A stretch of 64,000 bases of DNA from Balanoglossus misakiensis (taxonomy: Eukaryota > Animalia > Hemichordata), in NCBI GenBank assembly GCA_040954595.2, contig CM082579.2:8917625-8981624 (forward strand), written 5' to 3'. The translations under genes were made by a program, and so were the position numbers. The notes beneath the pieces were generated by a model. The model searched no databases. It saw only the letters and a program-made list of their open reading frames with translations, and was not told where the DNA came from. Below, piece after piece: positions 230-11,100 of this stretch. Every line of letters starts with the position of its first letter. The stretch's first letter is position 1.

Positions 230-3073
230 CGGTATCCGTAGCTTCTACAAACACGGGGTCGTGGGTGTAGGTCACGCATATTTGCACCCAGTTCTTGCCG
301 GCTTCGTTGACCTCGTCCCAGAAGTCCGGAGTCGCGTACCTGGTGAAATGCGAGTCCACCAAAGCCGTCTTCACCTCAACCGGGTACGAGTCGAAGCCCC
401 GCACCAGAGTCCTCGTCTCGTTGATGTAGTACGGCAGGTCGGCCTGCAACGGGTGTAGACATTGTTGTTCTCAAACTGGCAACATTTACTGTTAGACTGA
501 AGACCTACATGTATATACACCCTTTTCATAAGTCCAGCGCACTCACGCAGCATCGTGAATTTGAATTCAAAGCGAGGCCAATTGGGGAAACACCCTTGAT
601 GTGATTGGTCAACTTTCCCCCATTGGCCTCGCTTTCATGATATAAATCTATGATGGCTGCGTTAGAGCGCTAGACTCATGGAAAGGGTGTATTGGGTTCT
701 TCGTTTCTCGTCAGGTCCTTGCATGAGTAGGTTCCTGAAGGGTGTGTCGAAACCTGACTCTATAGGTATATTTTGCAACGCCTAATCGCAAATAAAAATT
801 ACAAATAATGAGTCTCTTTACTTTAAATGAGGGGAAGAGTGTTAAACAGGTAACGCAACAGTGGTATACTACGAGAAGAATTCTTAACTCGAAAACAAAG
901 TTTGACTTGCTTCCTTGTTTATTCACCAAAAAACTTGATTGTTTTTCTGTTTTCTCACTCCGATGTTGACAGGGAGATTGACCCGAGGGTACCGTCGGTC
1001 GATCGAACACTCGGACTATTGCCCGGCCTGCATAACAACCACGAAGCCAACCGGCACGCAATCGGCTGTTGGCATTACGTGATTTATTCGCCTCCGGCAT
1101 ATTACATTACCATGTTTCTAAAAAACATACCACAGGTTGCAAAATGTCCTCGCTGCAGAGATGTTTCGACATTGGCACCCCACAAAGTGTAGGCAACAGA
1201 TGTTCATTGTCAGATTGAGATCTGTCTTTGAAACATGCGTACCGGTTGAAAAATCATCGAGGAACACTTGTTTTTCACGGAAGGGTAGATTAGAAGGCAA
1301 CTTACTATCAGTAACACTGCTTTGTCATCTAGTTCCACTAAACATCAAAGAAAGTCCAGGAAAACGTTGAATTTTAGTAAATTGCATATGGCCATTTTCT
1401 ATAGAGCAAACTTGTTTTATTTATTTAGACAGCTTGACACATTATACAAAAGACCGTATTTCCTCAAGGAGTACACCATGACGTGCCAGTGTGAACCCAA
1501 TTTAACCCAGCAGTCTAAACGTCAGTTGTTCTCGTCACTTTATTTGTATTAAGTCATGTTTTCATATTTCGGTATGTTTGGAACTTGTGGCGCGGCGAGT
1601 CTAAACAACACTTACAAGTTGACAGCGTCATTAACAATTGGGCGAGAAAGTTACTGATTGTTAAATAAGAAAATACTTGCGTCATGGCTGCCAGCTACGG
1701 CCACAGTCGTTTGGGAGTTGTTACAGGGCGATTGCTCCCATGACTAATAGAAACGTCATTAATAGCAGCAATCACCGTGTAACTTCGAAGCGACCGTGGC
1801 TAATGACTGATTTAATATAACCTGACATGGCATTGGCGGCCAACACATCCAGACGAATGAAGTCGCAGCGTCATACAAGACAATTGCCTGAAAATAATAG
1901 CTGACGAAAAGCCGGATACTGCGTTTTAATTTCAGATATGGATCAGGACACTGTTATGTAAGACATGACCATACCCCGTTGCAAGGACCAAGGACAAACA
2001 TATGAATCCATGACAGAAAACAGACGCCGTACATGATAATAATTTTGATGCATGCAGTTGTAAAATGTGACTATTTAACGATATGACACGAATACATTTA
2101 ACAATCTTGACATCACTATACATTTGTCATTACCCGTCTTCGCAATGACCGATATTATGTATGAGGCTGTAACCCCCGGTGAGGTTGTGACTGGCGCCAT
2201 ATGTCACACCACACCACACCACACATCACCACACCACACCACGCCACACCACACCGAACCACAATACCGCACCACACCATAAAATCATGCATTCCTACTG
2301 TGTTAAACTTATTTAAGCAAAGCGTTGTGATATGAGAACAGACGCTTTGTAGGCGATACCAAAAGGAAATGTCTTACTTCGAATAACACATCAATCTGAT
2401 CATCGGTCAACTCCGATAGATTTCTTGATACGAGGTGGTAATTTTCGCTCGGTAGAGCATTTTCGAAGATGTACTGTGCTTCAGGCCTACTGAACCGAAA
2501 ACGCGACCCAATAACATTCTCGGTGCCGGACTCTCTCGGGTCAGCGATGACAGATTGTAACCAGTGTCGCTTCGGTTCACGGGTAGAAATGTAATTCTTG
2601 ACATAGTCGAACTGGTCTCTTGGCAGGCCTGCAGAATCTATGAAAGGGAATATTTTAGGGAACGATGTAGTTTATACAGTATTTTGATTTAGATTCGGAT
2701 CATCGAAGAACAGTTTACTATGATTCAGAATATCACAATTTTTTTCAAAAGGGGGGGGGGGTGTTACTGGTGAGATTACAGGACAATAAAAAGGAGGGAA
2801 TCTCTTGCCTTGTTTTTCTTGTGTTTAAACCCGAAATGGAGAAAACAAGTCGTTGTTTTTTTTCTCGAAAAAGACAAAACAAATATTTGCCACATTCGGG
2901 TGCAGCGAACAGAAGAGTCAGCGGAAACTGACAGAAGTATCACGGATTACACGCAACCATTGCAAAGCAATCTGCGCACAAGGAAGTAAAATGATTTTGA
3001 CTAGCTCACCTGCGCAAGTCCTTTGTAGGCTGCCAGAAAAGAGAGCCAAGAGGAAAACGCTGGCTCGGAGCAT
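230..3073 (-). CDS. Signal-peptide protein with N-terminal phage/T4-type (GH24) lysozyme-like domain, paralogue A; 5' part only, continues off the left edge
   Basis: Exons 3073-3010 (MLRASVFLLALFSGSLQRTCA, phase 1), 2637(or 2628)-2378 (SAGLPRDQFDYVKNYISTREPKRHW...VIGSRFRFSRPEAQYIFENALPSENYHLVSRNLSELTDDQIDVLFE, phase 0) and 443-230 (ADLPYYINETRTLVRGFDSYPVEVKTALVDSHF...WVQIC, phase 1). All junctions are GT-AG with compatible phases. Clearly homologous to exons 7488-7732 and 8059-8305. Confidence 0.8.
515..692. mobile_element. Small fold-back MITE-like element in an intron
   Basis: Terminal inverted repeat ATACACCCTTT (515) / AAAGGGTGTAT (682-692) and inner IR AAAGCGAGGCCAAT (569-582) / ATTGGCCTCGCTTT (622-635). 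Confidence 0.7.
2206..2279. repeat. Imperfect (CACAC)n microsatellite
   Basis: Visible pentamer run cacaccacaccacacc... Confidence 0.9.
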
Positions 3074-8100: not shown

Positions 8101-11100
8101 CTTCCCGACTTCGATAGTTATGACCTCAACGTCCAAGCAGCTCTGGTAGACAGCATCGTCGGCCACAGTCTGCGGTGTAACTCCGATGAAACGGAATGCA
8201 CAATTACGAGCCTCATCAATGACCCGGATATTACTTGGACCCAGGTCTGCGTGAAATACGTGAACGATGACAGATTTTGGAACGCCGAGGCTTTGGGCAC
8301 GCAAGGTATGTAAGGGGTACGGCATGACCAGATGAAGTACATTTCTCTGATTTGCGTTCAGTCACTGAAGTATTACAAGGGCTTAAATCAGAAATAGTTC
8401 AAGAAAATCGTAAGACAAATTAAAATTTGCCTGCGAGTCTAGGATAGCCGTAGCATCGGGTATATTTCAATGCAAAATATGCTTTGATTTCGCCTAGTTC
8501 GTCAACACATGTGCAAGACATAACGAACTGGACAAGTTCAACTGCAATTTCATAGTGACGTGTGAACTTTCTAAGTTTGACTCTCATCGTTTTTGTTGTT
8601 TTCAGACGACAAGTCCAGACTACGCAAGAACTGTCAGTTTTTTTACTCGTTTGGACAATCGGTAAACACCTCAATTGCCAAATACAATCCATGCTCTTCA
8701 AAATACGGTGAGTTAAACAGAAACCTTTGTTGAACCCAAAAGGTCTGAAGCACGTTTTTTTTTCTAGCCTACATGGTGATCAATAAACGCGTTACATGTC
8801 ATTCTCACAAGTGCACAAATCAAACTACAGGATTTGTTGGGAAAACAAGTAATTTTCTTCTGTATTTTGCACATTCAAAAGAAACCCTATAAGGAACGAC
8901 GGATTCATGCTCACAGTACAGTTTGGCTTCTGTACTTGTCTTTTCCAGAGTTGTTTTACCCCTACGGCCCGGAAGTTGGCGACAACGTCAACGAACTGAA
9001 CGACGATGGAAGTTCAGGTCAGGTGTTCATATCAACGCTGTTTCCGTTCTTTGATCAAGATCACGATTTCTTATGGGTGAGCCAATTATTATGATTTGGT
9101 ATGCGCCGATTCGCCTCGGGCCTGCGAGGACTTGTATAGTAGTTGTCTGGACATTCACGAGATGGACACAGGAAGACTTGCACAAACTTTAAACCGTCGC
9201 GAGACGTTTTACAAAATCATAATCTTGCGAACGACGTCGAGGTTATCTATTTTTTCAGACTTTTTTTATTTATAAGGGAGCAACATTAGTAAACAGTCTT
9301 GTTCGTTACAGTTATCGATTGGGTGTGAGATCATTTTAAATTCAAGGTAGAATGCGCCTCGAAACGCAAAGTGTTTCCTTTACTCATATTTTGCTGACAC
9401 TTTGGTTGAAAGAGCAAATTTGAAATTCAAAATGGCCAGTGATTTTTTTAAATACAAAAAACAAGACTGGAAACCTCACACTTTCATATAGCAACGCATT
9501 GAAATATTATCATTTTTTCTGATAATCGCTCATCAGATCAATACAAATGGGGTCATATCGTTTCTGGAAGAAGTTGACGACTACACGCCATTATCGTTTC
9601 CAATGGGCGACGAGTGGCGTCTTATAACCCCATTCTGGGCTGATATAGACACCGAAGAGGGCGGCAATGTTTTCTGGCGGGAAACGTACGACCAGGACGA
9701 CTTGGACAAGGCTACTCGGCACATCCGGGAGTACTTTGTTGAGGAAGGCGATTTCACTGCATTGTGGGCGCTTGTGGCCACTTGGGATGGCGTCGCTTTT
9801 TATGGAACAGCTCGACCAAATTTGGTAGGTATTGAAGGTAGAATATACTAAAGCACTTGCACTGTCGGTTATTATCAGGCCACATTTATGCCTGGCGGAA
9901 ATACACATTGTACACGCAAGTCCAAATGTATACACTGTAAAGCAGCAGGGAATGGCCTTGACTCTCTCACAGCCCACGGTTCGCTACAAGGCTGTGTGGA
10001 GTGACCGTGTCTTCACTGACGGGCCCTCAACCGTTTAGCACAGGAGAAGTCATGCAATCAGACCATAAGCCTGCATGGACGGCGAGAGGGGCTTTGAGAG
10101 AGTATAGGAATGGCCATACATGAATACATGTATAGGCAAGTGAATAGACCACCTTGCTGCCTGCATAGTTGTCAAATCGCTGCACAGTCTGAGTAACATG
10201 CCGTGCAAAATTAGACGACAACAGTTATCTATACCGGTGACCAATAGCACCTAGCCACGTCATTTCATTTCTCTGTATTTAATCGGACGCATCTTCATTC
10301 CGTATAACAGACGAACACATTCCAGGCTATCTTGATTACAAATGGACGTCACTCATTCACGATATTCAACTATGGAGACATCGTGTGGACAACTGGGACA
10401 TCGAGTGAGGGTGATGAGAACACTGGACTCGGCGGTACGCCCGCCCAGGTTAGTTTTGTCACATCTTTAGGAATCTTCTCGCTATATATATCATGTATTA
10501 TTGGTATAAGTGGAATTATACAAATTTCGTAGCAATTCAGATATATTCGTATAATGTAATAAGTTGTTCCAGCACAGGACGCCCGTGAGTGCAATCCAAA
10601 TAACACACCATTGATTTGAATACCCATGGTTACACGGGCATATAGGTGAATGTTATCGTGTAATTACTCAAGGGAAGATTTATTGTTGCATAACACGGTC
10701 CGTGTAGAAACAACGGCAAAAGTGTTCCTAACAGAAACGTTCGTTTTATTTGAAGGTGGGGTTCAATTCTGGTGATGGCGTCGTGTTTTACTCGGTGCCG
10801 GGATCGCAGAACAGTTCCATAGTGGACATCGAACTCACATCCAATAGAAATGTGCCTGGAAGATACGCGTTCAGGGTCGACACTGCTGATATTGAGGGAG
10901 GGGATGCTTGTGATGTCACAGGTAGGTACGTCACGCGACTTTGGGGGGGGGACTGCTGATGGGACATCTGTTTTGTGACAGCAGTAATTGTAGAATATTC
11001 CTTAATTAAATAAATTGAATGTCAAAAGTCCATGCCAATAAATACGTTGCACAACTAGTCATACTGCATGCACGTATAGTATAGGAACACGATTATTAAT

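Follow-up and report, generated by a model that had tools for sequence, protein, structure and literature searches.

Lysozyme-like paralogues of the acorn worm Balanoglossus misakiensis and a GH24-derived domain, predicted to have the T4-lysozyme fold, on a SUSD2-like membrane protein

The described proteins closest to those considered here are membrane proteins of the SUSD2, Drosophila Mesh and MUC4 kind and, on the enzyme side, T4 lysozyme, the GH24 endolysins and pesticin. Both kinds are joined in the product of gene B, one of two lysozyme-like genes (A and B) that face apart in a window of 64,000 nucleotides from the acorn worm Balanoglossus misakiensis (GenBank assembly GCA_040954595.2, contig CM082579.2, positions 8,917,625 to 8,981,624 of the forward strand). 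The active site of GH24 enzymes is given in the available parts of PMC8228626 and PMC5606550 as Glu-x8-Asp/Cys-x5-Thr with an Arg that positions the Glu. Animal phage-type lysozymes were described by Ren et al. from two bivalve subclasses, the available text reporting intron gain, duplication, three fusions (partners PGRP, MALRD2 and HSPG) and one lytic protein (PMC5303276). Co-option of a GH24 domain by a membrane protein is known from SpmX of the Caulobacterales (6H9D), which keeps only the Glu, the Asp and Thr having been released; the accessible portion of bioRxiv 10.1101/418723 reports that Val or Ile often occupies the Thr site, that SpmX binds peptidoglycan and that its activity is attenuated and Glu-dependent. 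On the receptor side, GDPH motifs of the kind found in gene B self-cleave in MUC4 and SUSD2 according to the available part of PMC10880436.

The product of gene B resembles SUSD2, Mesh and MUC4 in the order of domains from NIDO to the membrane helix and in the GDPH motif, and differs from them by an extra N-terminal GH24-derived domain missed by Pfam; unlike B, a sea-urchin SUSD2-like protein (P0003) begins directly at the NIDO region. The bivalve phage-type lysozymes are also animal GH24 proteins with gained introns, duplications and fusions, whereas the acorn-worm fusion partner is a single-pass SUSD2-like receptor and the site is degenerate, in a deuterostome. Mercenaria P0039, assigned to the bivalve group from its taxon alone, keeps the Thr, unlike most fused copies. 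T4 lysozyme, the GH24 endolysins and pesticin are like the predicted fold over residues 1-178, with the Glu ending helix 1, the beta-hairpin and, by alignment, the Arg in common; they carry E-x8-D-x5-T, whereas the acorn-worm domains are without this triad and have a longer hairpin, disulfide-like Cys pairs and an acidic character. SpmX represents an independent co-option, being a bacterial periplasmic polarity factor on the cell's own wall, whereas the acorn-worm protein would stand on an animal surface facing foreign bacteria. The insect PGRP-LC embodies the same idea, a single-pass membrane protein that binds peptidoglycan through a domain derived from an enzyme but not itself catalytic, although its amidase fold is unrelated and its signalling tail is known; in contrast, no signalling domain was seen in the short tails of the acorn-worm proteins.

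Receptor architecture and homology to GH24 lysozymes

Pfam searches with 19 single exons of gene B recovered NIDO, TIG, AMOP, VWD, C8-3 and three Sushi domains in that order, which together with a single membrane helix gives NIDO-IPT-AMOP-VWD-C8-3xSushi-TM (TM, transmembrane helix), the layout of SUSD2, Mesh and MUC4. The GDPH motif was present in the VWD domain of gene B and in 9 of 11 related proteins checked. The NIDO exon of B retrieved Ptychodera flava XP_070554202 (P0001), which shares both the N-terminal domain and the splice-junction sequences, and an animal-only alignment search yielded five Ptychodera clusters among 7,995 candidates. The domains paired as A with P0009 (70% identity) and B with P0001 (64%). 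Since its 70%-identical orthologue P0009 carries NIDO-TIG-AMOP-VWD-C8-Sushi, gene A likely shares the receptor architecture of B and continues into NIDO-AMOP exons, as suggested in a preliminary description of the window made from the sequence.

A profile built from the animal domains only gave 473 matches at E<=0.001 against 1.84 billion proteins. Four fusions ranked first, and below them came stand-alone proteins that aligned along almost the whole domain (best E 2e-26). PF00959 was found at E<=0.01 in 31 of the 44 non-NIDO matches scanned (50 of 149 new matches were scanned). Mercenaria and Owenia proteins and unnamed metagenome proteins were among the stand-alone relatives, and Mercenaria P0039 aligned with P0001 at 27% identity over 173 residues (pairwise E 1e-11). 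A hidden Markov model (HMM) was also built from 23 phage proteins collected by a motif scan, all 7 proteins tested from that scan matching PF00959. The four exon-bearing segments took ranks 1-4 among 1,343 window segments searched with this model, and the spliced domains of B and A scored 41 and 32 bits, the best of 2,000 shuffles reaching 3.8. All 8 animal domains scored 26-42 bits with the phage-only model and 18-35 bits after the selection-motif columns were removed, with 2,408 shuffled or reversed controls at <=6.2; hhalign of phage rows only against the animal domain gave 99.1%. The C-terminal third had no similarity to the motif-selected phage set, yet it aligned with a nearer GH24 subfamily. 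The top ESM Atlas matches, taken as leads only, were Phage_lysozyme or Pesticin clusters (0.78-0.82).

AlphaFold models of the P0001 and P0009 domains, computed from animal-only alignments, had pLDDT values of 80.6 and 87.5 and predict the two-lobed fold of T4 lysozyme with a beta-hairpin and a long connector helix. The best match in the fold search had Z 11.8 and a root-mean-square deviation of 4.3 over 166 aligned residues. All 45 chains with Z of at least 8 were T4 lysozyme, T4 lysozyme fusions (by title or chain range), GH24 endolysins, SpmX or pesticin, and 6H9D (SpmX) was a fold match for both models.

Some results detract from this assignment. The Z of 11.8 lies below the caution level of the tool for helical bundles (about 13), the best Foldseek E values for the two models were 3e-3 and 4e-3, and Pfam PF00959 gave no match on the exons, P0001 or six NIDO-bearing proteins. 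PHROGs gave no lysozyme match on the exons or full proteins, tblastn against 50,697 INPHARED phage records produced nothing significant (only E of at least 0.1), the animal profile retrieved no T4 lysozyme from PDB sequences and a word-based search with B exon 2 found no match. Three weak INPHARED matches proved to be chance on closer comparison. These negatives would be expected if the lysozyme likeness were due to chance or the exons formed no real gene pair, an explanation that is highly improbable as it is contradicted by the unbiased profile search, the phage HMM and the fold searches, and by the splice-junction sequences shared among orthologues. The fold scores alone are middling; taken together with the sequence evidence, they make homology to GH24 secure, and the lysozyme-like character proposed in the preliminary description is borne out by the phage HMM, the animal-profile search and the fold comparison alike.

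Active site and proposed function

The Glu-x8-Asp/Cys-x5-Thr triad was present in none of 7 copies checked and in 69 of 70 phage cores, the phage Thr having been preselected by the scan motif. The nearest stand-alone relatives have a variant site consisting of Glu, Tyr-Asp, a long loop and a Thr 19-20 residues after the Glu, and the Thr is retained in 13 of the 15 stand-alone relatives shown. The Glu at the end of helix 1 is found in A, in B and in all 11 fused copies with an N-lobe; among these 11 the following Gly occurs in none, Tyr-Asp in 3 and Thr in one (P0001), which alone has all of Glu, Tyr-Asp and Thr. Gene B keeps Glu and Tyr-Asp and has Ala at the Thr site. In gene A, which also keeps the Glu, Val takes the place of the Thr, Arg that of the second hairpin Gly, and the hairpin is longer. 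By alignment, the conserved Arg is present in all fused rows reaching its position. The odd spacing of the Asp was considered as a sign of decay and dropped, since the nearest stand-alone relatives have the same spacing.

The active-site pattern, with Glu kept and Thr mostly lost, resembles that of SpmX and thereby points to a binder rather than an efficient cutter. We give about an even chance to the reading, based on these sequence patterns and on analogy, that the domain of A and B is the peptidoglycan-binding, weakly hydrolytic tip of a membrane receptor at a gut or mucus surface. Its stalk, like that of SUSD2 and Mesh, would lift the domain well above the membrane, to the place taken in MUC4 by the mucin repeats, and the presumed tissue is a gut or mucus-covered epithelium. 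Self-cleavage at GDPH could shed the outer half. The retained Glu, paired with the Arg, would preserve a cleft fitted to the substrate, which may still hydrolyse slowly, as that of SpmX does. Should it bind peptidoglycan, the protein would be the animal counterpart of SpmX and would give a sediment-feeding worm a new means of catching or sensing bacteria.

Other properties of the fused domains speak against peptidoglycan binding. They are strongly acidic, with a net charge of -9 to -19 versus a median of +6 in the phage set, which may disfavour contact with the cell wall, itself a polyanion. No fused copy has an unchanged form of the conserved C-lobe motif (YRGDLG in the nearest relatives), so that substrate contacts may be gone, and the Glu may persist only for its contact with the Arg. 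In the Saccoglossus protein P0027 and in the similar P0055 the catalytic lobe is missing and what remains is fused to NIDO and a C-type lectin; retention of the rest suggests a structural role. Such properties, together with the new Cys pairs, favour a possible, if doubtful, alternative in which the domain has no peptidoglycan function and serves as a structural cap, or as a protein- or host-glycan-binding module, of an adhesion, junction or mucus-scaffold protein like Mesh and SUSD2. It is further favoured by the rate of change, the domain being the fastest-changing of the parts compared (B and P0001 share 64%, versus 72-77% for NIDO, AMOP and VWD), and by the role of Mesh as a septate-junction and gut-barrier protein, in the available portions of the sources, which also place it in the peritrophic matrix. 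However, the Glu has persisted in all 11 copies, among which identity falls to 27%, P0001 has Glu, Asp and Thr spaced as in a stand-alone clam lysozyme, and the proteins without the lobe are unverified gene models.

In B the Glu, Tyr-Asp and Thr site are spaced as in the nearest stand-alone relatives (11 matches share this spacing), which would also fit a working tethered or shed muramidase, or lytic transglycosylase, for which the Glu alone is enough and which helps a sediment feeder to digest or control bacteria. Goose-type lysozyme, lambda endolysin and AP3gp15 act with Glu alone according to the available part of PMC5674055, lytic bivalve phage-type lysozymes, some fused to other genes, are reported in the available text of PMC5303276, and gut lysozymes are used by deposit-feeding sea cucumbers in the accessible part of PMC11470021. 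Nevertheless a working enzyme is unlikely, given that the fused copies have lost the Thr in 10 of 11, the Gly in 11 of 11 and Tyr-Asp in 8 of 11 cases, that the A-types bear Arg at the second hairpin Gly, and that Thr is essential in pesticin, which a Thr-to-Ala exchange inactivates in the available part of PMC3390615. The paralogue series from P0001 (intact triad) through B (Thr lost) and A (hairpin remodelled) to P0027 (lobe deleted) would make the evolution from enzyme to binder testable.

Gene pair, relatives and origin of the fusion

All exons proposed for the pair in the preliminary description were present, in phases 1, 0 and 1, and all listed lysozyme-region exons of A and B have GT-AG ends. 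The ATGs of A and B face apart with 2,117 bp between them, a spacer that may hold the shared bidirectional promoter considered in the preliminary description; CpG and TATA scans of it pointed neither way. The two genes had been called alignable, and pairwise comparison of the exon pairs was significant (31% over 83 residues, E 8e-9; 36% over 72 residues, E 1e-12), the joined domains being 33% identical. The introns had been described as identical in position, which holds for three equivalent introns with small departures. Intron 1 has the same position in both genes provided that A takes a second acceptor 9 nucleotides downstream; this acceptor is present, and the Ptychodera isoforms X1 and X2 differ by exactly three residues matching the shift. 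Intron 2 is at the same place save for one residue inserted in B, and intron 3 is of phase 1 in both, four residues ahead of the conserved Arg, its position in A being taken from the orthologue. On these comparisons A and B are old paralogues with three equivalent introns, and parsimony supports the earlier proposal that the introns predate the duplication. That the duplication is old, also proposed earlier, follows from the presence of both A- and B-type copies in Ptychodera and of an A-type copy in Glandiceps. No DNA-level inverted repeat between A and B was found in positions 1-9000, as expected if the duplication is old.

Short-read contigs from one other sample covered all 30 bins of positions 1-19500, with exon bins at low, near-single-copy depth; the indels listed in 7400-9100 from this sample were all intronic (11 of 11). 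Among the allele differences listed, 4 of 4 in A were synonymous, and 3 of 6 codons in B were nonsynonymous, numbers too small to speak for or against selection. The genes are spliced and have orthologues in three acorn-worm genera, in agreement with a gene family rather than contamination. The paralogue pair of the preliminary description therefore stands, although that account overlooked how degenerate the active site is, the complete domain layout of B as a receptor and the repeat in its exon 10.

The profile search further gave Glandiceps talaboti (A type), another Ptychodera copy and Saccoglossus kowalevskii, so that the fusion is present in Ptychodera (A and B types), Glandiceps (A type) and Saccoglossus. 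Six of the 149 new matches listed (best 150 of 473) carried a NIDO signature; the five whose organism was looked up are all from acorn worms, P0055 being the sixth. The fusion is likely, although not proven, to be confined to acorn worms, since 323 weaker matches lie outside the listed set and the protein library searched was clustered at 50%. In a tree that left out P0010 and the lobe-less rows, the ten fused domains formed one group (100/99) with window A inside the A-types and window B beside P0001. The Ptychodera copies are named 'SUSD2-like' or 'mesh-like' at NCBI, and close accession numbers hint at a gene cluster in that genus. NPxY/F-like motifs, which could mean endocytosis, were noted in the tails of P0018, P0009, P0011 and P0003; the tail of B has no Tyr or Phe at that position. 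By the family placement of the genera, Saccoglossus and Ptychodera/Glandiceps belong to separate main clades of enteropneusts. The fusion would then go back to about the ancestor that these clades have in common; two main enteropneust clades are recognized in the available part of PMC6011522.

Stand-alone GH24 lysozymes, or ones fused otherwise, were seen in the annelid Owenia and the clam Mercenaria (P0042, P0054 and P0039), one Owenia protein having WAP and lipase-like parts. The Owenia proteins lie outside the bivalve range given in the available text of PMC5303276, and these relatives cast doubt on a restriction of animal phage-type lysozymes to bivalves. In a 66-row tree without a true root and with long branches, the stand-alone animal-type rows (P0062, P0070, P0080 and P0037 being so classed by likeness) grouped together (94/88) and joined the fused group in none of 300 bootstrap trees, whereas a tree forcing fused and stand-alone animal-type rows together was better by 8.0 log-likelihood units and not rejected (p-AU, approximately unbiased test, 0.63). 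One old animal gene and separate transfers are both compatible with the tree. It is a speculative and rather unlikely proposal that an ancient phage-type lysozyme was common to hemichordates, bivalves and annelids, predating the published bivalve-only transfer, and that acorn worms made from the T4-lysozyme fold an expanded family of membrane peptidoglycan receptors, a pattern-recognition or bacteria-capturing class undescribed in animals. The literature searches brought up no account of a SUSD2/Mesh scaffold carrying a GH24 domain, nor any of GH24 in a hemichordate, and the word 'lysozyme' is absent from the main text of PMC4729200, PMC11175523, PMC13554239 and PMC10210618, the supplements of which could list it. 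Both parts are of known kinds, and their combination and the degenerate site appear undescribed: an unannotated microbial-type domain sits on a familiar receptor scaffold of animals, in a lineage of central importance for the question of how deuterostomes arose.

Exon-10 insertion and features of the window

Exon 10 of gene B contains a high-copy repeat (Table 1) with a depth up to about 10,000-fold over its flanks. Without the repeat, B has an open frame of 1,372-1,374 codons, with 64% identity to P0001 over 1,293 residues; with the repeat kept in the mRNA, an in-frame stop arises at codon 665. The B allele of this haplotype is therefore probably damaged, the protein ending after the IPT domain, unless splicing from a weak donor near 12300 bypasses the repeat. 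Within the insertion, a microsatellite, a 3' palindrome and short inverted repeats in subterminal position were noted, an arrangement resembling that of Helentron-associated elements.

Table 1. Positions of gene A, gene B and other features in the window.
Feature	Position	Strand	Remarks
Gene A exon 1	3073-3010	-	phase 1; ATG and signal-peptide-like stretch (hydrophobic core by hydropathy alone)
Gene A exon 2	2637-2378	-	phase 0; GH24-like N-lobe; 64% to P0009; second acceptor 9 nucleotides in
Gene A exon 3	443-230	-	phase 1; GH24-like C-lobe; 74% to P0009; gene extends left of window
ATG-to-ATG spacer	3074-5190	.	2,117 bp; low, near-single-copy depth
Gene B exon 1	5191-5272	+	phase 1; ATG and signal-peptide-like stretch
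Gene B exon 2	7488-7732	+	phase 0; GH24-like N-lobe
Gene B exon 3	8059-8305	+	phase 1; GH24-like C-lobe; 64% to P0001
Gene B exon 4	8606-8707	+	phase 1; last domain helix (conserved Arg, Cys) and linker
Gene B exons 5-8	8949-9076, 9537-9824, 10311-10448, 10756-10921	+	NIDO, PF06119
Gene B exon 9	11404-11652	+	IPT/TIG, PF01833
Gene B exon 10	12005-12284 and 13770-13796 (coding)	+	Ig-like; both parts align with Ptychodera orthologues
High-copy repeat inside exon 10	12285-13769	.	1,485 bp; AATTAA either side; palindrome near right end
Gene B exons 11-12	14251-14940	+	AMOP, PF03782
Gene B exons 13-15	15283-16341	+	VWD, PF00094; GDPH self-cleavage motif
Gene B exons 16-19	16716-18153	+	C8-3 (PF23263) and three Sushi (PF00084)
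Gene B exons 20-21	18341-19032	+	transmembrane helix (hydropathy 3.58 over 21 residues), short cytoplasmic tail, stop
Intronic high-copy inverted-repeat elements	515-692 and 6832-7236		arms of 37 and 145 nucleotides
Sialyltransferase exons	19647-22400	-	GT29, PF00777; tail to tail with gene B
Gene with Kringle and WAP-type exons	~24700-41100	+	three Kringle exons, many WAP-type exons, membrane-like stretch near 41000
Pentraxin and WAP exons	42741-55928	-	
C-type lectin exon	51934-52332	+	
LDL-receptor class B repeat	62484-63047	+	

The inverted-repeat elements in the introns of A and B are presumably of the miniature inverted-repeat transposable element kind. The right-hand neighbourhood of the pair (42741-55928 and 62484-63047) is rich in extracellular and immune-type domains.

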